Shown here: positions 22,694 through 64,000 of the stretch, piece by piece
Numbering within the stretch: the first letter of the stretch is position 1
Layout of the letters: every line of letters begins with the position of its first letter
Source of the DNA: an uncultured Candidatus Bathyarchaeia archaeon
GTDB lineage: Archaea; Thermoproteota; Bathyarchaeia; Bathyarchaeales; Bathycorpusculaceae
DNA: 64,000 bases
Direction: 5' to 3'
NCBI GenBank assembly: GCA_964501295.1
Contig: CAZCSF010000004.1
Coordinates: forward strand, 49,009 to 113,008
The notes under the pieces: model-generated
What the model saw: only the letters and a program-made list of their open reading frames with translations
Databases searched by the model: none
What the model was told of the DNA's origin: nothing
Position numbers and translations under genes: made by a program

Positions 22694-23152
22694 ATGAAAT
22701 GCCCCTACTGCGGTTCAGAAAACCTCAAAACGCTTGAAACCCGCGACTCGGCAGACAACACCATAAGAAGACGCAAAGAATGCAGCGACTGTGGAAAACG
22801 CTTCACCACCTACGAATACATAGAAGCCATAGAGCTTATGGTGCGAAAACGCGACGGCCGAATGGAACGCTTCGACCTAAACAAAATAATTAGAGGCTTA
22901 CAGAAAGCCGGCGAAAAACGGCCGGTAACCATGGAGCAAATCCACGCCTTAGCCGAAAAGGTTAGACAAGAGCTTATGCAGCTGGGCAAGGAGGAAGTTT
23001 CTTCCCAAGAAATAGGCGACCTAGTAATGAAACACTTGAAAACCCTTGACCGCGTAGCCTACGTGCGCTTCGCCTCCGTATACCGCAGATTCGAAGAACC
23101 AGAAGACTTCCGCCGCGTGCTCCAAGAGGTGAAAAATAATGAAATTTGTTAG
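22694..23152 (+). CDS. nrdR: transcriptional repressor NrdR (zinc ribbon plus ATP-cone)
   Basis: MKCPYCGSENLKTLETRD...CSDCGKRFTTYE zinc ribbon, then an ATP-cone (VRKRDGRMERFDLNKI). The ATG at 22694 is preferred. Confidence 0.85.
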   Translation: MKCPYCGSENLKTLETRDSADNTIRRRKECSDCGKRFTTYEYIEAIELMVRKRDGRMERFDLNKIIRGLQKAGEKRPVTMEQIHALAEKVRQELMQLGKEEVSSQEIGDLVMKHLKTLDRVAYVRFASVYRRFEEPEDFRRVLQEVKNNEIC

Positions 23153-25268
23153 AAAACGGGATGGAAGACTTGAACCTTTCGATCAAGAGCGTATAACTAA
23201 TGCTATTTGGAAGGCCGCCAAGGCGGTTGGCGGAAAAGACCGCGAACTCGCCAAAAAACTAAGCAATCAAGTAGTAGCCGAACTTAAAAGGCGGTTCGGA
23301 GAAGACGGCGTCCCAACAGTAGAAGAAATCCAAGACATTGTAGAAAAAATCCTGATAGAAAACGGTCACGCAAGAACAGCCAAAGCCTACATCCTCTACC
23401 GAAAACAACACCAAGACCTGCGTGAGTTGGCAGCCCTCCTAAGCTCAGCAGACCTAGTAGACCAATATCTAGACATAGAAGACTGGCGAGTAAAAGAAAA
23501 CTCCAACATGAGCTATTCGCTGCAAGGCCTAAACAACTACTTGTCATCTACAGTTATAGCCAAATACTGGATAACCCGCATCTACCCACCAAACATAGCA
23601 GAAGCCCACTTTTCAGGCGACATGCACATCCACGACCTAGGCGTTTTAGGACCGTATTGCGTAGGCTGGGACATAAAGGATTTACTGCTTTCAGGCTTCG
23701 GCGGTGTGCCGGGCAAAATTGAAAGCGTACCAGCAAAACACTTCAGAACAGCCCTAGGCCAAGTGGTCAACTTCTTCTACACGCTTCAAGGCGAAGCAGC
23801 AGGAGCCCAAGCTTTCTCAAACTTCGACACTTACTTGGCGCCTTTTATACGCTATGATGGGTTAAGCCAGAAAGAGGTGGAGCAATCCCTACAAGAGTTC
23901 TTCTTCAACATGAATGTGCCCACCCGTGTAGGCTTCCAAACACCCTTCACAAACGTGACCCTAGACTTGGAAATCCCAGAATTCATGAAAGACGAACCCG
24001 TCATCATCGGCGGAAAAGTCATGGACGCCACATATGGCGACATGGAAAAGGAAATGGAAATGTTTAACACTGCCTTCGCGGAAGTCCTCAGCAGAGGCGA
24101 CGCAAAAGGAAGAGTCTTCACTTTTCCAATACCGACTTACTGCATAACAAAGGATTTCAACTGGGACTCACCCACATCCCAAAAAATCTTCGAAGTAGCA
24201 GCAAAATACGGAGCCCCCTACTTCTCAAACTTTGTGAACAGCGACATGAAACCCGAAGACGTCCGAAGCATGTGCTGCCGCCTACGAATAGACAATCGGG
24301 AACTCCGCAAACGCGGAGGAGGCTTCTTCGGAGCAAACCCGTTAACAGGAAGCATAGGCGTGGTAACCCTAAACCTTCCAAGGCTTGGCTATTTAGCAAA
24401 AGACGAAGATGAATTCTTCGAACGCCTAGAAACCCTCATGGAAACCGCCAAAGACAGCCTAGAAATAAAACGCAAAGTCCTAGAACAATTCACAGAAAAC
24501 GGTCTATACCCATATTCTAGGCGTTATCTAAGAGGCGTAAAAGAAACTTTTGGAAAATACTGGAAAAACCACTTCTCAACCATAGGCTTAGTGGGCATGA
24601 ATGAGGCTATAATGAACCTCTTCGGCTACGGCATAGCCACACCTGAAGGTCTCCAATTCGCGGTAAAAGTGCTAAACTTCATGCGAGAAAAGCTTGCAGA
24701 TTTCCAAGAGGAAACTGGCAATATTTACAATTTGGAGGCTACACCGGCTGAAGGCGCAAGTTATAGGCTTGCCCGCATAGACAAACGCAGATACCCAGAC
24801 ATTATTGTGGCTAACGAGAAGTATTTGGCTAAAGGTGCGGAACCCTTCTACACAAACTCCTCGCAGCTGCCAGTAGACCACGAAGCCGACCTCTTCGAGG
24901 CTTTGGAACATCAAGACAAGCTTCAAACGCTTTACACGGGCGGAACAGTCTTCCACATATACCTAGGCGAAAGGCTCTACTCTTGGAAAGCCGCCGCGGA
25001 ACTCGTCCGCAAAGTAGCCTGGAACTTCCGCCTTCCATACTTCACTTTAACGCCAACCTTCAGCGTCTGCCCAACCCACGGCTACATAAGCGGCGAACAC
25101 CGGCAATGTCCAAAATGTGGAGCAAACTGCGAAGTCTACTCAAGGGTTGTGGGCTACCTACGCCCAGTAGACCAATGGAACGACGGAAAACAAGCAGAAT
25201 TCGCCGTCCGCAGAACCTTTGAAAAAACTGTCGTTTTGCCACCAGCAACAGTGCCAGCCAGCTCGTGA
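23139..25268 (+). CDS. nrdD: anaerobic ribonucleoside-triphosphate reductase (class III)
   Basis: 709 aa. N-terminal ATP-cone (VRKRDGRLEPFDQERI), CCRLRID, C-terminal zinc site CPTHG...CPKCG, and glycyl-radical region SRVVGYLRPV. Confidence 0.9.
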   Translation: MKFVRKRDGRLEPFDQERITNAIWKAAKAVGGKDRELAKKLSNQVVAELKRRFGEDGVPTVEEIQDIVEKILIENGHARTAKAYILYRKQHQDLRELAALLSSADLVDQYLDIEDWRVKENSNMSYSLQGLNNYLSSTVIAKYWITRIYPPNIAEAHFSGDMHIHDLGVLGPYCVGWDIKDLLLSGFGGVPGKIESVPAKHFRTALGQVVNFFYTLQGEAAGAQAFSNFDTYLAPFIRYDGLSQKEVEQSLQEFFFNMNVPTRVGFQTPFTNVTLDLEIPEFMKDEPVIIGGKVMDATYGDMEKEMEMFNTAFAEVLSRGDAKGRVFTFPIPTYCITKDFNWDSPTSQKIFEVAAKYGAPYFSNFVNSDMKPEDVRSMCCRLRIDNRELRKRGGGFFGANPLTGSIGVVTLNLPRLGYLAKDEDEFFERLETLMETAKDSLEIKRKVLEQFTENGLYPYSRRYLRGVKETFGKYWKNHFSTIGLVGMNEAIMNLFGYGIATPEGLQFAVKVLNFMREKLADFQEETGNIYNLEATPAEGASYRLARIDKRRYPDIIVANEKYLAKGAEPFYTNSSQLPVDHEADLFEALEHQDKLQTLYTGGTVFHIYLGERLYSWKAAAELVRKVAWNFRLPYFTLTPTFSVCPTHGYISGEHRQCPKCGANCEVYSRVVGYLRPVDQWNDGKQAEFAVRRTFEKTVVLPPATVPASS

Positions 25269-25951
25269 AAACCATGAAGTTCAGCGGCATACAAAAAACA
25301 AGCCTAATAGATTTTCCAGACAAAGTGGCAGCGGTGCTTTTCACACCCGGCTGCAATTTACGCTGCCCCTACTGTTATAACTGGCGAATAGCTGTAAACC
25401 CAAAACCTCCATTCCTAAACGAGGAAACAACCCTTCAAATCCTAGAGGAACACAAAAAATACGTGGACGCCGTTGTCGTAACAGGCGGAGAACCAACCAT
25501 CCACAAGGAACTGCCACGCTTCTTAAAAAAGCTGAAGGATAAAGGCTTTGCTGTAAAACTTGACACAAATGGCTTGAATCCAACAGTTTTGGAGGAATGC
25601 CTCACTTACGTGGATTATATAGCCCTAGACTTCAAAACTTCACCTGAAAAATACCACCTCTTAGGAGCTAAAGACGCAGTGGCACTTATGCAAACAATTG
25701 AGATGCTAAAAAGCGGCAAAGTGGAATACGAGTTTAGAACCACCGTTGTTCCAAACATAGTTGAAGAAAAAGACATAACCATAATAGGCGAAACCGTTAA
25801 AGGCGCAAAAAACTATGCCCTTCAACAGTTTATACCCGGCGACACCCTAAGTGAAGAATACAAAAACCTAAAACCTTATCCACCAGATGTTATCGCCGGA
25901 TTTGCCGAAACTTTGAGGAAATATGTGGAGAAGGTTACCCTTCGCATTTAA
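25265..25951 (+). CDS. nrdG: anaerobic ribonucleotide reductase activating radical SAM protein
   Basis: 228 aa with CNLRCPYC. Overlaps the nrdD stop by 4 nt. Confidence 0.85.
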   Translation: MKTMKFSGIQKTSLIDFPDKVAAVLFTPGCNLRCPYCYNWRIAVNPKPPFLNEETTLQILEEHKKYVDAVVVTGGEPTIHKELPRFLKKLKDKGFAVKLDTNGLNPTVLEECLTYVDYIALDFKTSPEKYHLLGAKDAVALMQTIEMLKSGKVEYEFRTTVVPNIVEEKDITIIGETVKGAKNYALQQFIPGDTLSEEYKNLKPYPPDVIAGFAETLRKYVEKVTLRI

Positions 25952-27358: not shown

Positions 27359-28807
27359 CTACCTTATAAGTCCAACGCGGACCTTGCGGAAGCGGGCTGT
27401 GCCACATCCATGACCCACATACATGACTTGCCCCGGCACACCTTTGCCGCAGTTCGGCGTGCCCCACATTTTCCAGTCGTCTTTGCTGACGGCGTCACAT
27501 GAACCCCAGAATTGAGGCGTTACACCCATGTATGTTGGATTCTTAACCATTTCCTCAAGGCTTCCATTCTTTATCAGCCAGCCTATTTCTGTGCCGAACT
27601 GAAAGTTTATGCGTTTGTCATCTATGCTCCATGAACGGTTCGTCATCATCAAAACGCCTTCACGAGTATCCTCAATAATCTCTTCAGCCTTGTAATCGCC
27701 TGGAAGCAAGTTAATGTTGGTCATTCGTATAATGGGCAAAGCCAGCGGCGAATCAGCCCGCATGCCTCCGCTGCTCTCCTTAAGCCCAAGCTGAGCAGCA
27801 GTCTCCCTTGAACTCTGATAGCCTACAAAAACGCCTTCCTTTACAAGGTAAACTTTTTTGGCTTTTGTCCCTTCATCGTCAAAGCCGAAGGTTCCAAGCC
27901 CCAAAGGCGCCGTAGCATCCGCCACAATGTTCACTTTTTCAGAGCCGTAACGGAATTTCCCAAGTTTTTCAGGTGTCAGAAAGCTTGTCCCAGCATAGTC
28001 CGCTTCTGTTCCCAAAACCCGGTCAAGCTCTGTTGGATGCCCACAGCTTTCATGTATCTGCAAAGCCAACTGGTCTCCCCGTAGGATTAGGTCTATCTCG
28101 CCGGAAGGGCATTTCTCAGCCTCGAAAAGTTGGAGAAGCTCCTTTCCAACGGTTTGGGCGTGGTCCATTAAGGCTAAAGCCTCAAAGAACTCATAGCCGC
28201 AGGTGGCGAAGTCGCCGCGAAAGGCTGATGGATAAGACCTCACTTGAACCTCTGAGCCTTTGACGGCTATGGCTGATATTCCTCCGCCACACCATGTTAT
28301 TTGCTGGTTTATCTTTGCGCCTTCACTGCTCATGAAAAGTTTGCTTTCACGGTAACCTCTGTAGTGGGCGTAGGAAACATTCACCAACGGTGAAAACTCT
28401 TTCAAGAAGCGGCTGGCTTCAACCAGAACTTTGAGCTTCTCTTCTAACGGAACTTTGAAGGGGTCTTTCTTGAAGTTTGTAGCATACTTTTCACGGTAAA
28501 CTTTTTCCTTCGCCAGAACAGCTTCCCTTTTCTTTAGCATGGCGCTAGCCTTTGCAATGCTTACAGCCTTTTCAACGCAGCGCTTAATCTCTTCCCTTGT
28601 TATGTCAACTGAACCCGCAAAACCCCATGCACCATCAACGATGACTCTTACGCCGAAGCCTCTTACTTGTGAATAGGATATGGTTTCTGGTTCACCATTC
28701 TTTACTGTTAAGTTTTCGTTGAGGATTTCACTTATCCTTATGTCCGCGTAGGATGCACCATTCTTTTCAGCTTCTTTTAAAGCGTACTTTCCAAAATCTT
28801 CAGACAA
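27359..28807 (-). CDS. tldD: TldD family metallopeptidase
   Basis: 482 aa. HESCGHPTELD (HExxxH-type motif of TldD) and C-terminal GGxxF / CGK blocks. Confidence 0.8.
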   Translation of the reverse strand: MSEDFGKYALKEAEKNGASYADIRISEILNENLTVKNGEPETISYSQVRGFGVRVIVDGAWGFAGSVDITREEIKRCVEKAVSIAKASAMLKKREAVLAKEKVYREKYATNFKKDPFKVPLEEKLKVLVEASRFLKEFSPLVNVSYAHYRGYRESKLFMSSEGAKINQQITWCGGGISAIAVKGSEVQVRSYPSAFRGDFATCGYEFFEALALMDHAQTVGKELLQLFEAEKCPSGEIDLILRGDQLALQIHESCGHPTELDRVLGTEADYAGTSFLTPEKLGKFRYGSEKVNIVADATAPLGLGTFGFDDEGTKAKKVYLVKEGVFVGYQSSRETAAQLGLKESSGGMRADSPLALPIIRMTNINLLPGDYKAEEIIEDTREGVLMMTNRSWSIDDKRINFQFGTEIGWLIKNGSLEEMVKNPTYMGVTPQFWGSCDAVSKDDWKMWGTPNCGKGVPGQVMYVGHGCGTARFRKVRVGLIR

Positions 28808-28896
28808 TTGAACACCCTCTCGCTGTTAGAATATTAAAATATTGCAGCCTTGGTTCTTAAGCTTTGACAAAGCGTAAAGTTTAAAGGTTTAATACA

Positions 28897-29487
28897 TTGT
28901 TTAGGATTCGGAACGCTCTCCCATATGAGGTTTATGATTTGAGCATTGAAGAGGAAACCTTAGAGGAACGCAAAGCCAAAATCCTAATCAAATTAAGAGG
29001 CTACAAACTCCTCAAAAGCGAGAAAATTAAAGACACAACAACCTATGTTGTCGAAATTCCAAAGGAAAAACAGAAAGCCCTCATCTGGTGTGTTCCAGAA
29101 GAAACCGTTGGTATACTAACCATAAACCGCATGGCAAAAGCCATGAAAGAAGCAGAAATAGACCGCGGAATCCTCGTGGCAAGCGGACGCTACACCAACG
29201 CCGCAAAACAAGCGGCAAAGAAAAAACGTATAGAGCTCCTCCCAAAAACCTTCCCGGTCTTCGACATTTTCGAACATAAGCTTGTACCAAAACACGAAAT
29301 CCTAACACCAGAAGAACGCGAAAAAGTCCTAGCCCAATATAGAGTCAAACCATACCAGCTACCCCAAATTAAGGCTTCAGATCCAGCAGCCAAAGCCATA
29401 GGCGCCAAACCAGGCGACATACTACGCATAATCAGAAAAAGTCCAACAGCAGGCGAACACATAGCCTACAGATACGTCGTAGAATAA
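28897..29487 (+). CDS. rpoH: RNA polymerase subunit Rpo5/RpoH, long form with an Rpb5-like N-terminal domain
   Basis: The C-terminal ~75 aa ([69 protein letters not shown]) is a clear RpoH/Rpb5 C-domain. It is preceded by ~120 extra residues. Start is uncertain: TTG at 28897 or 28939. Confidence 0.8.
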
Positions 29488-29513: not shown

Positions 29514-32500
29514 CTAAGTTTTTGCAAACTTTCTTAATTTCAGCAGCAAAGCAACAGACAACACAGCGCTTATGGCGGCGACAAGCGAAAACACCAAAAC
29601 TAGATACTGTGGTATTGTCCAAGTCTCTTGAGCCCCTATTAAACCAGAAACATCCGTCTGGATTTGTCCAAGTCCAGGGACGACAACCGTGGCTATATTG
29701 CCCTCTATCTCTGTAACTGTTCCGTTTATCCTGCCTATTGTTGTTTGAATGATCGCTGTTGTACCGTTTATGGCTGTAACCTTAAGGAATATATTTTGAA
29801 GAGTTGTGCCCATGGCTGTTAGGTTAAGCTTTATTGCGTCAAGGTCTGGTATAACAACCGTTGCTATGCCATCTTTAATCTCATCAATGTGGGCGTTCCA
29901 GCTTGTCAGTGTTTGGCTTATCAGAAAGCTTTCAATGGAAACGCCACTTAGCGAGTAGTATTTTGCTTTAACGATTAACGTGTAGGTGCCTGCAGACGCG
30001 TTCCAAGGTATTGTGTAGGGTATTCTATAAAATCCTAAACCCACAGTTTCTATCGCATCGGTTAGGTTTGCATAAAGGCTTCCGTTAAAGTATAGTTGGG
30101 CACTTACATCCGCGTTTATAGGTTCTCCCAAGCTTGAAGCTAAAATGTAAAATTCAGCGATTTCGCCTGTGAAGTGTATCGCTCCTGCCTTGACTTGAAG
30201 GTTTAGCGTTGTTCTCAGAACTGTTATTTCCATTTTCAACGTTGTGTTTAGACCATCATTGTCTATCGCTGTGCATGACACGGTATAGGTTCCGCCCTTT
30301 TCATAAACATGGGTTATTATAATTCCATGTTCCACTGTTCCGTCGCCGAAATCCCAAATATAATCCACTATTGTTCCGTCTGGATCGTAGGAGGCTGAGG
30401 TGTTAAATGTCACAGTTTCGCCCACGTATGGATCTAACGGCGAATATTCAACGGAAACATGGGGCGGTCTATTTGTAAGCCAACTGATTAGTTTGACGGC
30501 AAGGCGTAGGTTGTCGGCGTAGGAAATGTAATAATTGTTTATCGATTGTTCGTCTGCTATACATGCAACAGCGCCCAAGCCAACTTCGGCCACCGCCAAC
30601 ATAACATTTCCATAGCGGTCCCGAATCAGGTCTTGAGCTGGAGAGCTTATTAAAAGTCTTCCGGGATAGCCAAAGTAAACGCTGATGACGCCGTCTGTTA
30701 CTGGATGGGGAGTAATGTCATTGGTGTACCCGCTATATCCGCTGCCTTCCCAGTCCCAACTTATTCCAGCGAAGCTTGTGATTTGGGTATAAACAGATGG
30801 AGCGTCATCTCCTATAACTAACAGTCCGCCTCCGCTCCTCACAAAATCTTTTATTGCATTAAGCTCATCCGATGTGTAGTAGTTCCCTGCTTGTGGAATA
30901 ACAAATATGTCATAGCCCTCAATCGTGGATCTGTTTATCGGTGTTGTTGTTAGAACCTCAGTTATATAGCCTTCATCCTCAATGGCTCTCACCCACGTGC
31001 TATACATGAAGATGCTGTCGGTAAAGTGAGTTTGGTCGAAAAGCACATACCCCTTAATCTTCAAGACGCGAACAATTTTTTCTGCCTTATTGTTTACTGT
31101 GGTAAACTCGTCTGGCAAAGGACGAACATAAGCTGTAATGTTGTAAAAGGCTTCAGTTTCAGGAGTCCAGACATGGCTTATTGTGTATGATGAACCGTTT
31201 GATAGGCTGAAGGTTTCGCTTGCAACTTCTGTTCCGTTAATGAGTATTGAGAGTTTCACATTTGCCTCATCATTTAACCCTATGTTGTAGGCTGTCGCAT
31301 TCAATATTGCTGTATCGCCAGGTTCAAGGTATGACGACGTTTCCAAGGTTGCTGCCAACTCATGTGGATATGTTGTACCTACCGGAATGTTTGTCTCGAC
31401 AAGCCTTAGCTGCAGATAGGGGTAGGTGTAATAGGAAACAATTAAGTCCATACCAATCCATAAGCCGGTTATTTTATTATACCAAAACAGGTATTGTGCT
31501 CCATCTAATGGGTGGGTTAACTCCCAGCATTCGACGGGATATATGCCGAACAAAATAATCTCGCTACCAGTGACTGTCGCACTTTCATACAGCAAGTTTA
31601 CTTTGGAGCCAATGTTTATGTCGGTTTCTATCCATCCGGGATACCATAACCCAGCCCAAACACCTTCCTCCACAAGCCTGTTCAACGTGTTGACAACCAT
31701 CCAATCCATGTAAACATTTCCGTAGGGGTCTTCTGCTGTGATCGTTATGTAAATTCTGTAGGGTTCAATGTATTCCTCATATGTTAGGTTCCAATACTCT
31801 TTATATAACAGTTGTCCAGTTCCAGGGTCATATTGACTTATTACATAGCTTGCCCATTGGCCTTCAATAGGGTTAATTAATGGGTATGTTACTGTCACAA
31901 ACCATGAGAGTACGTTGTTTAGCACATTGGTTTCTCCAGAGACTGGTTCCGCCCAAAATGTTACATTATATATTCCCTCAATGGAAGGGGTCCAAGATAA
32001 TGTGGTTTTGATGGATGTTCCATTTGCAAGAAAGCCTATGGATTCAGAGTCGACAAGGCTGCCGTTTACGATGAGGCTAACATTCAGATTGGTTTCATCG
32101 CTTGTGCCAAAATTCAGTACAGTTACATTGTAGGAGGCTTGGTCTCCCGGGCAAATGTATTCTGGACCTTGCACATTCAAGATGAGGAGGTCGTGTTCTG
32201 GAGGCTCTTGTTCAACAGCCTTTCTCGCGTTAACCCTTCCATAACCCATCTCGTCAAAGCCTGAAACCTCCAAGTCGTCAATGGTGCACCTTAATTGAGC
32301 TCTAACCCAGTCATTTATCGCGCTAGGATACAGACCCCAGATGAGCGCTGCAACACCGGCAACGTGGGGGCAAGCCATAGAAGTGCCACTCATATAATCG
32401 TAGTTCATGTCATAACCATAATAGTCGTTTAAGGTTACAGGGTATGTTGGCATGGTCGAGTATATGGATACGCCGGGTGCTGCTAATTCTATCCATTCTC

Positions 32501-33584
32501 CCCAGTTTGAAAACGGAGCCTTTAAATCACTTTGGTCGGTGGCTGCTACAGCTATGACTTCTTCATAAGCTGCAGGATAAACTTTGACATTAATGTTATC
32601 GTTTCCAGCAGCGGCAACCAGCAGGGCACCATTCTCGTAAGCATATCTAACGGCTTCATGTAAAAGGCTACTGTAGCCGTATCCGCCTAGGCTCATGCTA
32701 ATTATGTCTGCCCCAGAATCTACGGCATGGATTATACCGTTGGCTACCCAATCATCAAATCCATAACCCCAATTGTCCAAAACTTTTTCAGCCATGATCT
32801 TAACTTGCGTCAAGCCGGCTATTCCCACGCTATTGTTTATAACAGCGGCAATTATGCCAGCGCAGTGAGTCCCGTGACCAAAATCGTCTTTTGGATCGTC
32901 GTCATCTTTCACCCAGTCATAGCCTAAAGCCAAATAGTTTCCAGCCAAGTCTGGATGTGTATAATCAACACCTGTGTCAACAACTGCCACGATGATGTCG
33001 GAAGAGCCTAACGTTGTGTTCCACGCGTAATTTGCCTCTATCTTTTTTGGACCCCACTGAACTGCCCAATTTAGGTCGTTTGGCTCCAGTAGGGCTTGTC
33101 GTTTCATGTTGGGCTCTACGTAGCGCACTAAAGAGTTTCTGTTCATTTGCTCTTTAAAAGAGGAGATCGTGGTTAATGGGATGTCAGCGACTACTGCCAC
33201 GATCCTATTGCCTATTGACACTGTGTTTACAATTTTTCCTTTGCTGTTAGCAACTGCGTCGGCAATGGTGTTGTAAGCCCATGATTTTGTATGGTCTATA
33301 CCGATTATTAATTGTATTGAATCCTCATCTGAAACAATTGAGCTTCTATGATTAAGAACCGTAAAATCAGAATTCACATCAACGAAATCATTCTGTGGAA
33401 AGCCATTTAATCCCCATAAATTCTTGAAGATTTTAGTAGACGTTGAATCTCCACTTAAGATGCTTGTGTTTTCGCCTTCGCTTAGAGGGTTGCTGCTAAG
33501 AGCGGTGGTGATAGTTGCATTTGTCAAAAGTATTATTGTTATGATGGTTATTACTGCGATTTTTTTCCACATATTCTTATTCAT
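29514..33584 (-). CDS. secreted multidomain S8 subtilisin-like serine protease with C-terminal membrane anchor
   Basis: 1356 aa. Signal-like N-terminus. Catalytic triad blocks VAVVDTGVDYTHPDL, HGTHCAGIIAA, SGTSMACPHVAG. Two CARDB-like repeats. PKD-like domain (DPDGTIVDYIWDFGDGT). Terminal TM followed by KLRKFAKT. Confidence 0.85.
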   Translation of the reverse strand: MNKNMWKKIAVITIITIILLTNATITTALSSNPLSEGENTSILSGDSTSTKIFKNLWGLNGFPQNDFVDVNSDFTVLNHRSSIVSDEDSIQLIIGIDHTKSWAYNTIADAVANSKGKIVNTVSIGNRIVAVVADIPLTTISSFKEQMNRNSLVRYVEPNMKRQALLEPNDLNWAVQWGPKKIEANYAWNTTLGSSDIIVAVVDTGVDYTHPDLAGNYLALGYDWVKDDDDPKDDFGHGTHCAGIIAAVINNSVGIAGLTQVKIMAEKVLDNWGYGFDDWVANGIIHAVDSGADIISMSLGGYGYSSLLHEAVRYAYENGALLVAAAGNDNINVKVYPAAYEEVIAVAATDQSDLKAPFSNWGEWIELAAPGVSIYSTMPTYPVTLNDYYGYDMNYDYMSGTSMACPHVAGVAALIWGLYPSAINDWVRAQLRCTIDDLEVSGFDEMGYGRVNARKAVEQEPPEHDLLILNVQGPEYICPGDQASYNVTVLNFGTSDETNLNVSLIVNGSLVDSESIGFLANGTSIKTTLSWTPSIEGIYNVTFWAEPVSGETNVLNNVLSWFVTVTYPLINPIEGQWASYVISQYDPGTGQLLYKEYWNLTYEEYIEPYRIYITITAEDPYGNVYMDWMVVNTLNRLVEEGVWAGLWYPGWIETDINIGSKVNLLYESATVTGSEIILFGIYPVECWELTHPLDGAQYLFWYNKITGLWIGMDLIVSYYTYPYLQLRLVETNIPVGTTYPHELAATLETSSYLEPGDTAILNATAYNIGLNDEANVKLSILINGTEVASETFSLSNGSSYTISHVWTPETEAFYNITAYVRPLPDEFTTVNNKAEKIVRVLKIKGYVLFDQTHFTDSIFMYSTWVRAIEDEGYITEVLTTTPINRSTIEGYDIFVIPQAGNYYTSDELNAIKDFVRSGGGLLVIGDDAPSVYTQITSFAGISWDWEGSGYSGYTNDITPHPVTDGVISVYFGYPGRLLISSPAQDLIRDRYGNVMLAVAEVGLGAVACIADEQSINNYYISYADNLRLAVKLISWLTNRPPHVSVEYSPLDPYVGETVTFNTSASYDPDGTIVDYIWDFGDGTVEHGIIITHVYEKGGTYTVSCTAIDNDGLNTTLKMEITVLRTTLNLQVKAGAIHFTGEIAEFYILASSLGEPINADVSAQLYFNGSLYANLTDAIETVGLGFYRIPYTIPWNASAGTYTLIVKAKYYSLSGVSIESFLISQTLTSWNAHIDEIKDGIATVVIPDLDAIKLNLTAMGTTLQNIFLKVTAINGTTAIIQTTIGRINGTVTEIEGNIATVVVPGLGQIQTDVSGLIGAQETWTIPQYLVLVFSLVAAISAVLSVALLLKLRKFAKT

Positions 33585-58080: not shown

Positions 58081-58518
58081 TTAGACTATGCTGACGTTTT
58101 GTATTTGGAAGTAGCGTTTCATCAGCATGCGGAGCCTTTCGGCGTTTCTGCCGTTCTTTCCTATGGCGACGCCTTTGTCTCTTGGATGAACCGTCACGAC
58201 GGCGATGGTTTTCCCATCCGGCCGCTCGGTTATTCTAACCTCCTGAACTGTGGCGGGTTTTAAGGCGTTCTTGATAAATTGGGCTGGATCATCGGAGTGT
58301 TCAATTACCTCGTGTTTTTTGCCCGTCATTCGCTCTAGTAGTGTTATGTTTCTTCCGCCTCTGCCTATGGCTACTCCCAAGTCGCCCTCTTTGACAACGA
58401 AGATTACACGGCCTTGTTCTTCGTCAACTATGCAGTCTTTTACGCTGGCGCCGCTTATGCTTTCAAACAAGGCGATGTACTTCATCTCTGTGCTTGTGAA
58501 TTTTATGCCGCTGTTCAT
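58081..58518 (-). CDS. nusA: archaeal NusA-like transcription termination/antitermination factor (two KH domains)
   Basis: 145 aa from the ATG at 58518. GVAIGRGGRNI and GVAIGKNGRNA are GxxG KH loops. Conserved position after rpl30e. Confidence 0.85.
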   Translation of the reverse strand: MNSGIKFTSTEMKYIALFESISGASVKDCIVDEEQGRVIFVVKEGDLGVAIGRGGRNITLLERMTGKKHEVIEHSDDPAQFIKNALKPATVQEVRITERPDGKTIAVVTVHPRDKGVAIGKNGRNAERLRMLMKRYFQIQNVSIV

Positions 58519-58856
58519 TCGCTTCCTCCGTGTGTCCCCTCTAATTCGACAGTTTCTATTAATCTGAGAATTTCTGAGTCGCCGGGTTCTCTTATAGTTA
58601 ACGCTGAAATAATGAAGGGTTTTCCACAAACCATGGCTAAATCTGTTGATGACCCTTTATACACGATTAAGGGGATGCTGGAAAGCCGGCAATAGTATTC
58701 TAGGTCTCTGCGGATTTCCATTGGACAATTAGAGGCTATAATTATCATTTTGGCTTTCCCTGTTCTAGCGCTTTGTATGGCGAAGTTTGCGCCAAAATAA
58801 ACTTTACCAGTTTTCACAGCGGTTGTTATTGCTTTATTTACATCTATGTCTGTCAT
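58515..58856 (-). CDS. rpl30e: 50S ribosomal protein L30e
   Basis: 113 aa. AVKTGKVYFGANFAIQSARTGKAKMIIIASNCP...SSIPLIVYKGSSTDLAMVCGKPF. Confidence 0.85.
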   Translation of the reverse strand: MTDIDVNKAITTAVKTGKVYFGANFAIQSARTGKAKMIIIASNCPMEIRRDLEYYCRLSSIPLIVYKGSSTDLAMVCGKPFIISALTIREPGDSEILRLIETVELEGTHGGSE

Positions 58857-61800
58857 TTGTTCTCCCTCTTCAACTCTGAAGTGGACATGAAAAGCTCCAC
58901 CAAGCCCGTGCCTACTGGTATAGATTGGCCAACTATAACGTTTTCAGTTACGCCTTCCAGCGGATCGCTTTCCCCTCGGATGGCTGCATCCACAATGTTT
59001 GGAACAGTTATTTCGAAGGCTGCTCTGGCTAGGACGCTGGCTTTTTTGCCGCTTATGCCGTGTCTTCCAATTTGCTGCACTTCGCCAGTAGCGGTCATCA
59101 TGTCTGAAACAAGCATTACATGGCGTATGTCAACATCTAACCCTTGCTCTTCTAAAACGTTTTTAGCCTCTTGTATGAGGACATTCCTTGCAGCCTCTAT
59201 TCCCAAGGTTTTGGCTATTTCGTGAATGTTGTTTGTTGTTGTCCTAGTGGTGTCAACTCCGTAAACTTCTAAAACTTTGGAGAGATTTGAGCCGTCGGTT
59301 CTGATAACCCACTCGCCATGCTCCTCTGTAACCAAAACACGCTTTATACCTGGAACACCCTTAATGTAGAAGGAGGAAACTTTGTCCAAGAGTTTTTTGA
59401 GGACTTCAGCTTTTTTAGGCTTTATGTGCACGCGGTTCCCGCTTATTTTCACGGTGCAGTTTGCTATTTTCAATTCATCCCTAAGCTCTTGAACTGTTAT
59501 TCCCCTGTCTTCCATCATGGCTTTGTTTAGCTCCACAACTATTTCTTCGCGTACCGGATCTTGATAAATTGCCTCCGCTATATTCTCCAATGTTGTGTAA
59601 AGTATGTTCCGTGCGATTTTGACAGCCGCTTCTTTGCTCTTCCTATGCTTCTCATCCAAGTAGATGACCATTATTGGTGTTGATGGAACCCTTCTGGCAT
59701 CCACAATCTCTATCAGCCGGGGCAAACCTAGAGTTACGTTTTGCTCTCTGACTCCAGCATAGTGGAAAGTTCTAAGGGTCATCTGGGTGCCTGGCTCGCC
59801 TATGGACTGGGCGGAGACTATGCCAACGGCTTCACCTGGCTCCATTAAAGCCTTTTTGTAATGTTCAACTGTCAACTCTACGGCTTTGTCAACGCCTTCC
59901 TTGCTCAGCTTTGCTTCCGCCAAGCCTTGCCTAAGTTCGTTTATAAGCATTGGTGTCAGTTGATCCTCAACTTCTTTCAGTTTATTTTTGATATATTCTG
60001 GAGAGGCTGGCTTACCCTTTTCCATTCCGATTCTTATCTGCTCAATTAAGCGGTTAACGTTCACAGCCTTTCCATGGTCGCTTTTGGCGGGATCAACACC
60101 ATCCTCACCATATTTGAATTGGATTATGTCTCCAGCTGAGCTTCTCACGGTTCCATCGTATTCTAAGCGAAGGTGTTCCAGCGCATTGATTAGCCGCCTC
60201 TGCATGTAACCGCTCTGCTGCGTCCTAACAGCCGTGTCCACTAGGCCTTCTCTTCCTCCCATGGCGTGGAAGAAGAATTCAATGGAGTCTAAACCCTTCT
60301 GGTATGAAGAGTAAACAAAACCCCTTGCCTTTGGGGTTGGATCGCCATATTTAAAGTGGGGTAAGGCGCGGCCGATATATCCTCTCATTATTCGTTTTCC
60401 ACGGACTGCTTGTTGTCCCACACATGCACTCATCTGTCCAATGTTGAGGGCTGAACCTCTAGCGCCAGTGCGGGTCATGATTATGCCTGAATTTTCAAGA
60501 GCGAAATCTTCATCAGCTATTTTTCCAGACTCGTCCCTTGCTTTAGCCAGTTCGTTCATTACGTAAATTTCAAAGGAGTCCTCCAGAGTCTGCCCGGGAA
60601 GCCTTTGTAATGTGCCGTTGCGATAGCTTTCCACAAGCTCGCTGATCCTTTTCTCAACCCTTTCCATAATTTTTCTTATCTTACTCTCAGCCTGCGGTGA
60701 AAGAACAAGCTCTTCATAGGAGTATGTGAAACCCCGCATTGTTATGAAAAGTTTCAACAACCGCGTAATCTTATTTATAAACGCGCGTCCAGATTCCGTC
60801 CCATAATCTTTTATTATTCTGTGAAGGAGGCTTTCAGACTGTTCAGCTCCTATGGCGCGTCTGTCGATTACGCCGCTTATGAGTTCGCCGTTTTTAACAA
60901 CAACGTAGGCGTCGTAGGGGCATTCCTCTTTTAGGCATTTGGAGCATCCATGGCAAATGTTCGCCTTCAAAACATAGTTCAAGTCTTTGGGAAGGAAGAG
61001 GCTGAAGATTTGTTTACCACTCCACATAGGTTGCGGTTCTTTAATCTGGGGTTCAGGCAAAGGTCCTTCGTATTCAGCCGCCATTAACAATCTGCTGACT
61101 TCATCCTTTGTGAGGTAGTTGGATTTTCTGGTGAAGAGATAGGCAGCTGTTATAAAATCTCGAATTGCTCCTATTATTGGACCGCCAAACCTTGGAGAAA
61201 GTATCTGGTCTTGAACCTGCATTAAAAGGCGGGCTTCTGTTTGAGCCTCTTCACTTTGGGGAATGTGAAGGTTCATCTCGTCTCCGTCAAAGTCAGCGTT
61301 GTAGGGTGGACACACACATAGGTGAAGCCTAAACGTCTTGTATGGGAGAACCCGTACACGATGCGCCATTATGGACATTCTGTGAAGGGATGGCTGACGA
61401 TTGAAGATGGCTATGTCGCCGTTTTTAAGGTGTCTTTCAACAATAAACCCTGGCTCAAGGGCTTCAGCGATCTTCTCCCTATCAGCCACAAATTCAAGCC
61501 TAATGCGTTTGCCGTCTGGACGGATAATGTAAAGAGCCCCGGGATATTTTAATGGTCCATTTATGACAAGTTTCCGCATTTCTTCAATGTTCCATGGAGT
61601 TACTTTTTCGGGCACTGAAAGCCTCATGGCAACTTCCATGGGCACGCCAACCTCGTTGATGTCGAGGTTGGGATCTGGAGATATGACTGTGCGCGCTGAA
61701 AAGTCAACCCTCTTCCCGGAAAGGTTGCTTCTGAATCTTCCCTCCTTTCCCTTCAGCCTCTGAGAAAGCGTTTTTAGGGCTCTGCCGGAACGGTGCCTTG

Positions 61801-62674
61801 CCGGCGGTATTCCAGAAGCTTCATTGTTGAAGTATGTTGTCACATGATATTGGAGAAGCTCTGACAGGTCTTGAATTATGAGCGTTGGGGCTCCAGCATC
61901 CATGTTTTCCTTCAGTCTTTGATTAATTCGGATTATATCCACAAGTTTATGTGTCAAATCGTCTTCTGAACGTATGCCAGACTCCAAAGTTATGGATGGA
62001 CGCACGTAAACGGGTGGAACTGGTAGCACTTGTAAAACCATCCATTCTGGGCGGGCGGTTTTAGGGTCGAAGCCTAAAAGTTCAAGGTCTTCGTTGGGTA
62101 TGCGCTCAAGCCTCTCCCTAACCATGCTTGGCGTTAAAAGCTGGGCACCGCTTTCAGGGATTTCCTCGCTGAATTTTGTTGGTTTTTCAAAGGTTATTTT
62201 GTATTGGGAGGCATTGCAGTGGGGGCAAGTTTTAGATTTAGTTTCTTGAACTATCCTCTTAAACATTTCATCCGGAACCGTTCCCAAAAGTTGGCGGGTT
62301 TTTTCAATTCTAGCCCGCAGTTTTTTGACGGAGTCTTCTGGAAGGAGCATTCTCCCACAGTTTCTGCAAGTTGTTCTCAAAAGGTCGTAAATTATTCTAG
62401 CGAATTCGATGTGGATTATGGGAACTGCAAGCTCGATGTGGCCGAAGTGTCCTGGACAGCGGATCGCCGTGTTCCCGCAGGTTTTGCATCTTTGCCTTGG
62501 TTCAAGGGTTCCAAGACGCCCATCCATCAGCCCAGCGGTTATTGGAGCGCCATCCTCATCATAAGTGTCTGGAGTTTGAATTTCAACAACTGAAAGTTTG
62601 CGTATTTCTTGCGGCGAAAAAAATCCAAAACGAATTTCATCGACAACTTTATGGGCAACTTCTTCTAACGCCAT
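58853..62674 (-). CDS. rpoA: DNA-directed RNA polymerase subunit A (Rpo1), unsplit A'+A'' in a single ORF
   Basis: 1273 aa. Zinc sites CKTCGN...CPGHFGH, catalytic NADFDGDEMNLH, then in the same frame the A''-type region (EPGEAVGIVSAQSIGEPGTQMTLRTFHYAGV ... VIVGQSIPVGTG). Confidence 0.9.
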   Translation of the reverse strand: MALEEVAHKVVDEIRFGFFSPQEIRKLSVVEIQTPDTYDEDGAPITAGLMDGRLGTLEPRQRCKTCGNTAIRCPGHFGHIELAVPIIHIEFARIIYDLLRTTCRNCGRMLLPEDSVKKLRARIEKTRQLLGTVPDEMFKRIVQETKSKTCPHCNASQYKITFEKPTKFSEEIPESGAQLLTPSMVRERLERIPNEDLELLGFDPKTARPEWMVLQVLPVPPVYVRPSITLESGIRSEDDLTHKLVDIIRINQRLKENMDAGAPTLIIQDLSELLQYHVTTYFNNEASGIPPARHRSGRALKTLSQRLKGKEGRFRSNLSGKRVDFSARTVISPDPNLDINEVGVPMEVAMRLSVPEKVTPWNIEEMRKLVINGPLKYPGALYIIRPDGKRIRLEFVADREKIAEALEPGFIVERHLKNGDIAIFNRQPSLHRMSIMAHRVRVLPYKTFRLHLCVCPPYNADFDGDEMNLHIPQSEEAQTEARLLMQVQDQILSPRFGGPIIGAIRDFITAAYLFTRKSNYLTKDEVSRLLMAAEYEGPLPEPQIKEPQPMWSGKQIFSLFLPKDLNYVLKANICHGCSKCLKEECPYDAYVVVKNGELISGVIDRRAIGAEQSESLLHRIIKDYGTESGRAFINKITRLLKLFITMRGFTYSYEELVLSPQAESKIRKIMERVEKRISELVESYRNGTLQRLPGQTLEDSFEIYVMNELAKARDESGKIADEDFALENSGIIMTRTGARGSALNIGQMSACVGQQAVRGKRIMRGYIGRALPHFKYGDPTPKARGFVYSSYQKGLDSIEFFFHAMGGREGLVDTAVRTQQSGYMQRRLINALEHLRLEYDGTVRSSAGDIIQFKYGEDGVDPAKSDHGKAVNVNRLIEQIRIGMEKGKPASPEYIKNKLKEVEDQLTPMLINELRQGLAEAKLSKEGVDKAVELTVEHYKKALMEPGEAVGIVSAQSIGEPGTQMTLRTFHYAGVREQNVTLGLPRLIEIVDARRVPSTPIMVIYLDEKHRKSKEAAVKIARNILYTTLENIAEAIYQDPVREEIVVELNKAMMEDRGITVQELRDELKIANCTVKISGNRVHIKPKKAEVLKKLLDKVSSFYIKGVPGIKRVLVTEEHGEWVIRTDGSNLSKVLEVYGVDTTRTTTNNIHEIAKTLGIEAARNVLIQEAKNVLEEQGLDVDIRHVMLVSDMMTATGEVQQIGRHGISGKKASVLARAAFEITVPNIVDAAIRGESDPLEGVTENVIVGQSIPVGTGLVELFMSTSELKRENK

Positions 62675-62675
62675 C

Positions 62676-64000
62676 TCACGCCCTCTCCTTAAGTTTCAAC
62701 TTCGGCGCAATGCAAAGGCTCATCAGTTCTTGTAAGAGAAGCTTAAAAGCATAAGACACTATAACTGGCGAGATTTTCGCCTTGTCTTCGCATAGTCTAC
62801 ATATGTGCTTTCTTTGTTTCATGTCGTAGTAGGCTATGTAGCCGCAGTTTTCACAAACATATAAAGTGTACTTGTCCGACTCTTCCAGCAACCTATCATG
62901 GAGAAGCATTGCTGCTCCGTGTCCGATAAGGCAGTCTCGCTCCATTTCTCCGAATCTTAGACCTCCGCCTCTCGCTCTTCCTTCGGTTGGCTGCCGCGTC
63001 AGCATCTGCACTTGTCCCCTAGCCCTTGCATGTATTTTGTCTGCCACCATGTGGTGCAGTTTCTGGTAATACACGACTCCAACGAAAATGTCTGCCACAA
63101 ACTTTTCGCCGGTAACACCGTTATAGAAGACTTCTCTTCCGGTGTGGCTGAAGCCAAGCTTTATTAGGGCTTTTCTCAGTTCTTCCGACCTTTCATTTGA
63201 GAAGGGAGTTCCATCCACAAGTTTTCCCCTAATGGCCGCAACTTTGCTCGCTATTGACTCGATGAACTGCCCAATGGTCATTCTCGATGGGATTGCATGG
63301 GGGTTTATTATTATATCTGGGACTATGCCGTCCTCTGTGAAGGGCATGTCTTCTTGGGGAACAATCAATCCGATAACTCCTTTCTGACCATGACGGGATG
63401 CAAATTTATCGCCTAGTTCGGGAATCCTCTGGTCTCTAACCCGAACCTTGACAAGTTTGCTTCCCTCGCCGGAGTCTGTTATGAAAACGGCATCAACTAT
63501 ACCTGTTTCTGAAGGCCTCATGTCCACAGATGTGTCACGCATCGACGGCCCTTTAACTTCGAATTCCTTATATTCTTCCAGGAACCTCGGTGGGCTCGTT
63601 CTCCCTATTAAAACGTCGCCGCCTGCTACTTGGGCTTCTAAACTGATTATTCCATCGGGCTCCAGCAGTCTATAGTATTGTTCTCCTCTAAAACCTCTTG
63701 TACCTGGCTCGGGTATTGTGAACTTGTCTTTTAATCCACCCATGTATTGTCGGCATTCAGCCTCATATATTCTGTAGAAGGTTGAGCGTGCCAAGCCCCT
63801 TTCTATTGAGGCTTTGTTAAAAACTAGGGCGTCTTCCATGTTGTAGCCTTCAAAGGAGAGGACAGCCAATACGCAGTTTTGTCCGGAAGGACGAAGTTTG
63901 TATCCCATGGTTTCCATTAAAGCGGTTTCCACAAGGGGCGTTTGTGGATAGTGGAGTATGTGGGCTCTTGAGTCTACGCGGAGGGGGAAGTTTGTGGCGA
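62676..64000 (-). CDS. rpoB: DNA-directed RNA polymerase subunit B (Rpo2), C-terminal part; ORF runs off the window edge
   Basis: [22 protein letters not shown], and C-terminal zinc ribbon CENCGYI...CRLCEDK. The frame stays open upstream of the listed GVG-type start at 63932 ([23 protein letters not shown]). Confidence 0.9.

Follow-up and report, generated by a model that had tools for sequence, protein, structure and literature searches.

Results

A long rpoH gene in a Bathyarchaeia archaeon

In archaea, the RNA polymerase subunit RpoH (Rpo5) is about 75-90 amino acids (aa) long, and its gene typically heads the rpoB-rpoA operon. Here, we describe a much longer version of this gene in a 64,000-nucleotide (nt) stretch of DNA (henceforth, the window; 44% GC) from an uncultured Candidatus Bathyarchaeia archaeon (assembly GCA_964501295.1, contig CAZCSF010000004.1). 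An open reading frame of up to 196 aa, as originally predicted, is present at 28897-29487 on the forward strand if read from its first TTG. Judged by conservation across related loci, the true start is the second in-frame TTG at 28939 rather than that at 28897, yielding a coding sequence (28939..29487, +) of 182 aa plus the stop codon, with both start and length conserved. It comprises an N-terminal domain with a predicted catalytically dead PD-(D/E)XK/Mrr-like fold that resembles the jaw of eukaryotic Rpb5 (28939..29250, +; residues 1-104) and a C-terminal assembly domain of the canonical RpoH/Rpb5_C type (29260..29484, +; residues 108-182).

Both TTG codons had been put forward as candidate starts in the original prediction, and the evidence divides them. 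The codon equivalent to that at 28939 is TTG in 57, GTG in 7 and ATG in 2 of the 80 related Bathyarchaeia loci, and in the window it lies 7 nt downstream of a Shine-Dalgarno-like GAGGT (28927..28931, +), with a comparable GRGGK motif found between -25 and -3 of the start in 70 of 79 related loci. Further upstream, a BRE/TATA motif AAAGTTTAAAGG (28876..28887, +), which by its sequence is a putative promoter, is placed 59 nt before the start codon, and 69/79 related Bathyarchaeia loci share an AAAGTTTAWRG motif 54-62 nt upstream of theirs. The in-frame extension reaching back to 28897 (28897..28938, +) is not conserved, because many related loci have an in-frame stop 0-4 codons upstream of the TTG equivalent. 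The conserved start, the Shine-Dalgarno sequence, the upstream motif and the nearby stops therefore point to a 182-aa protein, with 28897-28938 falling outside it, most likely as a 5' untranslated leader. In many loci, the AAAGTTTAWRG motif is followed by a partly conserved stretch of the leader (about TTAGGATTCGAA). The combination of a conserved TTG, a promoter-like motif and such a leader may reflect regulated or deliberately weak translation initiation. Antisense and overlapping reading frames inside the gene were also considered and rejected, as they displayed no conservation signal.

The C-terminal domain is a canonical RpoH assembly domain

The C-terminal domain spans the entire Pfam RNA_pol_Rpb5_C profile (PF01191, E=9e-32, profile positions 1-73 of 73; residues 122-194 of the 196-aa reading), and with 114 bits the protein clears the 83-bit cutoff of the NCBIfam RpoH equivalog model NF007129. 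Among solved structures, subunit H of T. kodakarensis is the best match at 93 bits, with 62% of the 73 aligned columns identical, followed by the S. acidocaldarius and P. furiosus subunits (90 bits each, 62% and 59% identity, respectively). Yeast Rpb5 binds Rpb1 through D182, R200 and R212 (PMC1802627), and a MAFFT alignment indicates that the equivalents of all three are kept in the window protein. The domain is under very strong constraint, with a median ratio of nonsynonymous to synonymous substitutions (dN/dS) of 0.04 (pairwise Nei-Gojobori, 488 pairs). The nearest relatives of the C-domain of the window's clade are short Bathyarchaeota RpoH forms (70-71% identity). Its identity to eukaryotes is 44-48%, and since at 48% it is no closer to them than the Thermococcus C-domain is at 51%, the whole gene is unlikely to have been acquired recently from a eukaryote. 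Weak matches of the protein to RNA_ligase and ArsD-related models fell far below their cutoffs and were discarded.

The N-terminal domain is constrained and has a dead nuclease fold

Substitution patterns in the same 488 pairs indicate that the N-terminal domain is translated and constrained, its median dN/dS of 0.11 being a mark of purifying selection. Moreover, the length is conserved with a continuous frame in 80 Bathyarchaeia genome loci at 62-97% identity, and the linker region of the window gene (residues ~95-115) lacks any ATG, GTG or TTG codon. Translation from near residue ~120, which the original prediction had named as one finding that would undo it, is thus contradicted; the dN/dS value, the preserved start and Shine-Dalgarno sequence and the absence of a start codon in the linker together rule out a product consisting of the C-terminal third only.

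An AlphaFold2 model built with a 16-sequence alignment (full length, pLDDT 87.4 and pTM 0.74; N-domain modelled by itself, pLDDT 90.7) predicts an alpha-beta3-alpha-beta-alpha-beta topology, i.e., a PD-(D/E)XK core, with a helix at 8-19, three directly consecutive strands at 23-30, 33-40 and 45-52, a helix at 59-71, a strand at 76-81, a helix at 87-95 and a final strand at 98-101. This agrees with the Pfam matches of the domain, namely NA-iREase1 (PF22722; E=2.4e-9 to 1e-8, 35.6-37.6 bits against a cutoff of 27) and Mrr_cat (PF04471; E=3.8e-8 to 2e-7, 31.7-33.9 bits against a cutoff of 21), both of which are recovered above or near their cutoffs by 16/16 family members. Across these 16 members, whose N-domains diverge down to 28% identity, invariance within the N-domain is confined to E10, R20, G58, G77 and E99, with no conserved acidic residue in strand 2 and no conserved (D/E/Q)xK in strand 3. 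In the window protein, strand 3 reads ALIWCV, which places W-C-V at the (D/E/Q)xK position. By its sequence, then, the N-domain is a dead nuclease fold, in agreement with its best Pfam match, NA-iREase1, being a family named as inactive. We detected no NACHT domain in the RpoH protein or beside the gene.

The N-terminal domain and the whole protein resemble eukaryotic Rpb5

The yeast and human Rpb5 sequences used in the BLASTP, hhalign, MAFFT and tree analyses were checked only through their strong Pfam matches. BLASTP aligned the window protein with yeast Rpb5 over 175 residues at 31% identity (E=1e-23), pairing ...NAAKQA with yeast ...PSAMKL and placing a further segment opposite yeast THHELVPKHIRL; this is the same register as in the by-eye alignment of the original prediction, which is thus vindicated. 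In a phmmer search, query residues 22-193 (196-aa numbering) and yeast Rpb5 39-213 were likewise joined in one stretch.

The N-domain on its own carries part of this signal. As a single sequence of 106 aa it retrieves Rpb5 as its best, albeit weak, PDB match (E=0.019), and a 13-sequence N-domain profile run against 177,635 PDB sequences returns 11 distinct matches with E=1.2e-5 to 0.059, all of which are eukaryotic Rpb5; there are no restriction enzymes among the profile matches in these sequences, and everything beyond Rpb5 has an E value of at least 0.2. An extension of the profile by 24 residues carries the alignment across the linker and into the C-domain without a gap (E=9e-8). Profile-profile comparison with the yeast and human Rpb5 N-domains using hhalign gives 92.6% probability (E=4.6e-7) over 62 columns from strand 3 to strand 5. 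With the archaeal N-domain profile, eukaryotic Rpb5 N-domains reach 18-29 bits, compared with only 13-16 bits for Mrr_cat or NA-iREase1, two families against which the archaeal N-domain scores 34-38 bits. The archaeal domain therefore behaves as a sequence intermediate between the Mrr-like domains and the Rpb5 jaw.

Structural comparisons point the same way. In Foldseek searches with the full-length model, the top 33 matches are all full-length Rpb5 (30 eukaryotic chains and the African swine fever virus (ASFV) homologue), the best with a TMq of 0.77-0.80 to whole Rpb5 over ~200 columns, compared with 0.40 for the short archaeal H. Rpb5 also heads the matches to the N-domain model by itself (E=1.4e-4, TMq 0.57, root-mean-square deviation ~2 A), MspJI being the single restriction enzyme in the top ten.

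Individual residues were compared as well. Yeast R26 and E133 lie opposite residues that are invariant in 16/16 archaeal long forms in the MAFFT alignment, and an RGY motif is common to both. For the R26 helix taken alone, the HMMER alignment is not significant and BLASTP picked a different register. The R26E substitution is among the lethal rpb5 mutants (PMC1802627). The Glu equivalent to E133 and the conserved His of the C-domain are 14 residues apart, without gaps, in the window protein, yeast and human alike. Together, these observations support the N-domain being homologous to the N-terminal (jaw) domain of Rpb5 and, among solved structures, most similar to it.

The long form is a conserved family in Bathyarchaeia

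Sequence searches establish that the long form is a conserved family and not a one-off. A scan with one genome per species recovered 80 loci with the full-length protein, 79 of them titled Bathyarchaeota or Bathyarchaeia. Among 1922 relatives in the database, most homologues are 181-184 aa, and the best 120 of the 1922 are all 176-201 aa with the same three Pfam domains. A search of 1.8 billion representative proteins with the single N-domain sequence yielded 38 clusters, and the long form proves to be conserved in two Bathyarchaeia clades. The clusters include the second of these (P0154, P0157), a large clade with a GC content of 57-63% (estimated from the short contigs L084 and L166) and NCBI labels of Bathyarchaeota, Bathyarchaeia or Thermoproteota, as well as a few rare low-GC clades (P0134, P0149, P0151, P0155, P0161) and a paralogous family with a Cys-rich module (see below). 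The contigs of the low-GC clades show no diagnostic neighbours, and these clades could be of Asgard origin. In the second clade (L084:735-1480, L166:840-1576, L171:9810-10549), the long rpoH lies directly downstream of a gene for a 61-63-aa zinc ribbon, which by eye is rpoP/Rpo12. The yeast R200 equivalent is Gln in 5/5 second-clade members examined and Arg in every other long or short form examined.

The canonical position of rpoH next to rpoB was surveyed in 80 metagenome loci retrieved with the RpoB fragment of the window. In none of the 69 loci with an RpoB sharing 77% or more identity with that of the window does an Rpb5_C-coding stretch occur near rpoB; except in about ten of them, these loci take in the rpoB start and as much as 8 kb of DNA before it. 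Conversely, where RpoB is 73-76% identical, a short rpoH is found immediately upstream of rpoB in 11/11 loci. These operon-head versions are ~85-107 aa, one of them (L165) being cut by the end of the locus. Among the 80 genome loci, the long gene never lies beside rpoB and there is no second Rpb5_C match. The window itself has the long rpoH as its sole Rpb5_C-coding stretch. With the canonical slot empty in the window's clade, the long gene thus appears to be the rpoH of that clade and to have replaced the short one. Short RpoH proteins of 84-88 aa do occur in other metagenome-assembled genomes (MAGs) labelled Bathyarchaeota, and there is no accession overlap between long and short forms among the NCBI members compared. 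The 20-kb context of one second-clade member contains no rpoB.

Genomic context of the long rpoH

The gene is monocistronic, as first proposed, with a divergent TldD/PmbA gene upstream (27359-28807, -) and a convergent S8 peptidase gene downstream (29514-33584, -), whose stop codon is 27 nt from that of rpoH. The latter encodes a subtilase of 1356 aa, either secreted or anchored in the membrane, that carries CARDB, DUF4350 and PKD domains. Adjoining the TldD/PmbA pair are nrdD and a radical-SAM gene (23139-25951, +), which code for an anaerobic ribonucleotide reductase of 709 aa with an ATP-cone and a 228-aa protein that is probably its activase. Synteny between this pair and the long rpoH extends to about 60 of the 80 Bathyarchaeia loci, nrdD and nrdG being the usual syntenic partners of the long gene.

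The distance of ~30 kb from the rpoB-rpoA cluster given in the original prediction is close to the mark, being about 29.4 kb. That cluster consists of rpoB, of which the window holds only a part (62676 to the window end at 64000, -; Pfam Rpb2 domains 6-7) with the head of the operon beyond it, an unsplit rpoA (58853-62674, -) with Rpb1 domains 1-5 (Pfam) in a single 1273-aa frame, and, following rpoA, a gene for a NusA-like KH protein (58081-58629, -). In Sulfolobus and Pyrococcus, rpoA is split into A' and A'' (PMC2847245, PMC2675907). About 4 kb from the long rpoH of the 869-kb chromosome CP070714.1, a separate 195-aa open reading frame (L076:530-1117, -) matches only the last 153 residues of RpoA at 83% identity; either a duplication or the splitting-off of the C-terminal end of rpoA could account for it.

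Related proteins and annotation

Bathyarchaeia-like contigs also encode a paralogous family, absent from the window, in which an inactive nuclease-fold domain like that of the long RpoH is joined to a Cys-rich C-terminal domain (L109:78-635, +; L127:11947-11423, -; protein P0160; 27-34% identical to long-RpoH N-domains). The L109 paralogue is situated ~7 kb upstream of rpoB. Another protein of 220 aa (P0143), from a contig of 1,086 bp, has an RpoH-N-like domain and the first residues of Rpb5_C, followed by an Smr domain (E=1e-26); it could be either an assembly chimera or a real domain swap.

The long form is inconsistently annotated, with the affected members including P0295 (OGD57471.1), P0296, P0426 (MCK4438433.1), P0037 and P0163. 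NCBI calls OGD57471.1 and MGD0805021.1 as proteins of 81 aa with the C-domain only and one fragment as 'restriction endonuclease, partial', and in JGI annotation several members appear as 'RNA polymerase I, II and III subunit RPABC1', which is a eukaryotic name. The long form will therefore be overlooked or mislabelled when RpoH lengths are surveyed.

Discussion

A two-domain Rpo5 with a jaw-like domain

We consider it somewhat better than an even proposition that the gene encodes an Rpo5/RpoH subunit in a two-domain, Rpb5-like form whose origin is in common with that of the eukaryotic jaw, be it by descent or by transfer. In such a subunit, the C-terminal 75 residues would constitute the universal assembly domain, whose conserved Arg/Asp salt-bridge residues dock it on the largest subunit, and the ~104-residue N-domain would be an Mrr-like restriction-endonuclease fold that lost its catalytic residues and, held at the same spacing, is the closest known relative of the Rpb5 jaw. 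In the window's clade, the gene would have left the rpoB-rpoA operon and come to be transcribed alone from its own promoter. Positioned at the lower end of the cleft, the jaw of Rpb5 binds downstream DNA (PMC2675907, PMC1802627, PMC2847245). By analogy with the Pol II and Sulfolobus structures, the N-domain is expected to sit at the lower end of the DNA cleft like the jaw, where it would contact or guide downstream DNA and stabilise it in open-complex formation and early elongation. It would probably also fill the groove that is taken by Rpo13 in the Sulfolobales, and may serve as a docking surface for initiation factors. The two-domain architecture itself would have a single origin shared with eukaryotic Rpb5, whether inherited or transferred.

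More tentatively, and with rather less than even confidence, we propose that two-domain Rpb5, with an inactive jaw and an assembly domain, arose in archaea before eukaryotes, such that the long Rpo5 of Bathyarchaeia is a less diverged survivor. The eukaryotic jaw would then have been inherited vertically, or acquired by transfer from a Bathyarchaeia-like lineage, rather than having been invented during eukaryogenesis.

Several observations weigh against a common origin with the eukaryotic jaw. First, the Pfam check suggested in the original prediction failed, with the RNA_pol_Rpb5_N model (PF03871) matching none of the 16 members at E<=10, partly because this model covers yeast 6-99, whereas the best-conserved stretch corresponds to yeast 77-135. 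Second, the N-domain has ~104 aa as against ~142 aa in yeast, has no counterpart of the ~35 residues inserted in eukaryotes after the first strand and before the second (yeast about 32-75) and is only ~25% identical to Rpb5-N. Third, the best-aligned motifs (VG after strand 3, G-hhh-V and T-x-x-A-K/R) fall in the stretch that aligns with Mrr_cat in both proteins and may be general features of the Mrr family, in which case they may be retained ancestral characters rather than shared derived ones. Fourth, the predicted orientation of the two domains could be biased because AlphaFold was trained on Rpb5 structures. Finally, the spread of the long form inside Bathyarchaeia is patchy which, along with the nearness of its C-domain to short Bathyarchaeota forms, favours a gain inside Bathyarchaeia; nor is that C-domain any nearer to eukaryotes than its Thermococcus counterpart. 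Thus, of the 'full-length Rpb5 orthologue' originally predicted, the two-domain RpoH with a homologous jaw-like N-domain survives; the eukaryotic length and insert do not and, given the patchy spread, orthology by descent is conjectural.

These points bear on the strongest competitor, namely an independent, convergent fusion in which a local inactive Mrr-like domain was joined to RpoH in a Bathyarchaeia lineage. The likeness to Rpb5 would then reflect common descent within the Mrr/PD-(D/E)XK superfamily, and the domain could still act as a jaw, with no bearing on the origin of the eukaryotic one. This fusion remains a live rival because of the patchy spread, the ordinary archaeal C-domain and the presence of the N-domain on another module. 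Specifically, the NA-iREase1 and Mrr_cat scores of the N-domain exceed any Rpb5 score, and the occurrence of that domain on the Cys-rich module of L109, L127 and P0160 makes it a mobile module in Bathyarchaeia. Other Bathyarchaeota MAGs retain the short operon-head RpoH closest in sequence to the C-domain of the window's clade, and in a crude neighbour-joining tree of the C-domain (73 columns) the long forms are not monophyletic, the tree being too poorly resolved to decide the matter. The subunit of Sulfolobus, Pyrococcus and Thermococcus has also been described as the C-domain alone (PMC3906176, PMC2675907, PMC2847245). We nevertheless regard convergence as doubtful since the domain order and the 14-residue Glu-His spacing are identical to those of Rpb5, and the residues placed opposite R26 and E133 by MAFFT do not vary. 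In addition, Rpb5 is all that the N-domain profile retrieves from the PDB sequences, the archaeal profile gives Rpb5-N a higher score than generic restriction-enzyme families do, and the predicted two-domain model superposes as a whole at a TM of 0.8.

A further alternative is that the long protein is a paralogue, with a short RpoH encoded elsewhere in the genome, and acts as an alternative or regulatory Rpo5 variant or as a polymerase-docking factor. In its favour, the gene is detached from the RNA polymerase operon and our view of this genome spans only 64 kb. The Gln in place of R200 in all five second-clade members fits such a role as well, and the GC content of this clade overlaps that of loci with a short operon-head rpoH, so the two forms could coexist in some genomes. 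We find this improbable in view of the 69 loci of the window's clade without an rpoH near rpoB, the retention of R200, R212 and D182 in the window protein, its passing of the NCBIfam equivalog cutoff, the very strong constraint on its C-domain and the lack of a second Rpb5_C match in any of the 80 genome loci.

An active nuclease fused to the polymerase subunit, for example, with a defence or DNA-processing function, might be read from the above-cutoff match to Mrr_cat, but is highly improbable given that E10, R20, G58, G77 and E99 are the sole invariant N-domain residues, that neither the strand-2 acidic residue nor the strand-3 (D/E/Q)xK is conserved and that NA-iREase1, the Pfam family matched best, is by definition inactive. 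Least credible of all is an annotation artefact in which translation yields no more than the C-terminal ~80 residues, what lies upstream being an untranslated leader or having a separate function, as the 81-aa and 'restriction endonuclease, partial' calls at NCBI might imply, for it is countered by the purifying selection on the N-domain, the continuous frame and conserved length in 80 loci, the conserved TTG and Shine-Dalgarno sequence, the linker devoid of start codons and the confidently predicted fold.

Implications for the origin of the polymerase jaw

The Rpb5 jaw has been treated as specific to eukaryotes (PMC1802627, PMC2675907, PMC2847245, PMC3906176), a 2012 survey of the PD-(D/E)XK superfamily listed Rpb5-N as Eukaryota only (PMC3424549), and archaeal subunit H has been described as being without any N-terminal domain (PMC3906176, PMC2675907, PMC2847245). 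A 2026 survey of small archaeal subunits covers Rpo6, which is extended in Bathyarchaeota, and Rpo8, and does not cover the length of Rpo5 (PMC13257274). Our literature search, with most subscription journals outside its reach, found no published account of an Rpo5 of this length in archaea. The fusion of an Rpb5-like jaw to an archaeal polymerase would add to the scattered eukaryote-like features of TACK archaea, beside the unsplit rpoA of the window. With the N-domain as a sequence intermediate linking the Rpb5 jaw to Mrr-like domains, the origin of the jaw becomes testable by phylogeny; if the ancestral-archaeal scenario is true, the jaw of eukaryotic RNA polymerase was inherited from an archaeon. 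The long form also offers a natural system for studying jaw function, such as the grip on downstream DNA, the stability of the open complex and the docking of factors, in comparison with enzymes having a short RpoH.

Comparison with known systems

The N-domain has the same core fold as Mrr_cat and NA-iREase1, and shares the loss of catalytic residues with the latter, a family named as inactive. Unlike these, it is fused to an RNA polymerase subunit, has no NACHT or conflict-system partner and lacks the catalytic D...(D/E/Q)xK. In the canonical archaeal RpoH/Rpo5 (PDB 4QIW_H, 7OK0_H, 8CRO_H), it is the C-terminal 75 residues that are orthologous, presumably with the same docking on Rpo1, whereas the long form adds the 104-residue N-domain and is encoded alone ~29 kb from rpoB-rpoA.

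In Sulfolobus, Rpo13 sits beside Rpo5 at the entry of downstream DNA, where in Pol II the Rpb5 jaw takes up part of the space (PMC2675907). Being a lineage-specific addition to the archaeal polymerase near Rpo5 (in Sulfolobales and Desulfurococcales), sited where the Rpb5 jaw lies, Rpo13 is a likely functional analogue of the N-domain. In contrast to the N-domain, which is fused to Rpo5, it is a separate helix-turn-helix subunit of unrelated fold. A two-domain form outside cellular eukaryotes is also known from the Rpb5 homologues of nucleocytoplasmic large DNA viruses, such as that of ASFV (PDB 8Q3B_E; TMq 0.72 to our model), but these are viral, 19-20% identical and have N-domains of eukaryotic length.

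The closest parallel is eukaryotic Rpb5 itself (RPABC1; PDB 1DZF; chain E of Pol I/II/III). The archaeal protein departs from it in having a shorter N-domain without the insert between strands 1 and 2, which is missed by Pfam RNA_pol_Rpb5_N and is far nearer to the Mrr-like families (34-38 versus 13-16 bits), and in its archaeal host and archaeal-type C-domain, with 59-62% identity to the H subunits of Thermococcus, Sulfolobus and Pyrococcus. In common, the two have a catalysis-free PD-(D/E)XK-fold domain followed by an assembly domain, conserved equivalents, as aligned by MAFFT, of R26, E133, H147, D182, R200 and R212, an identical linker spacing and a whole-chain TM of 0.77-0.80.

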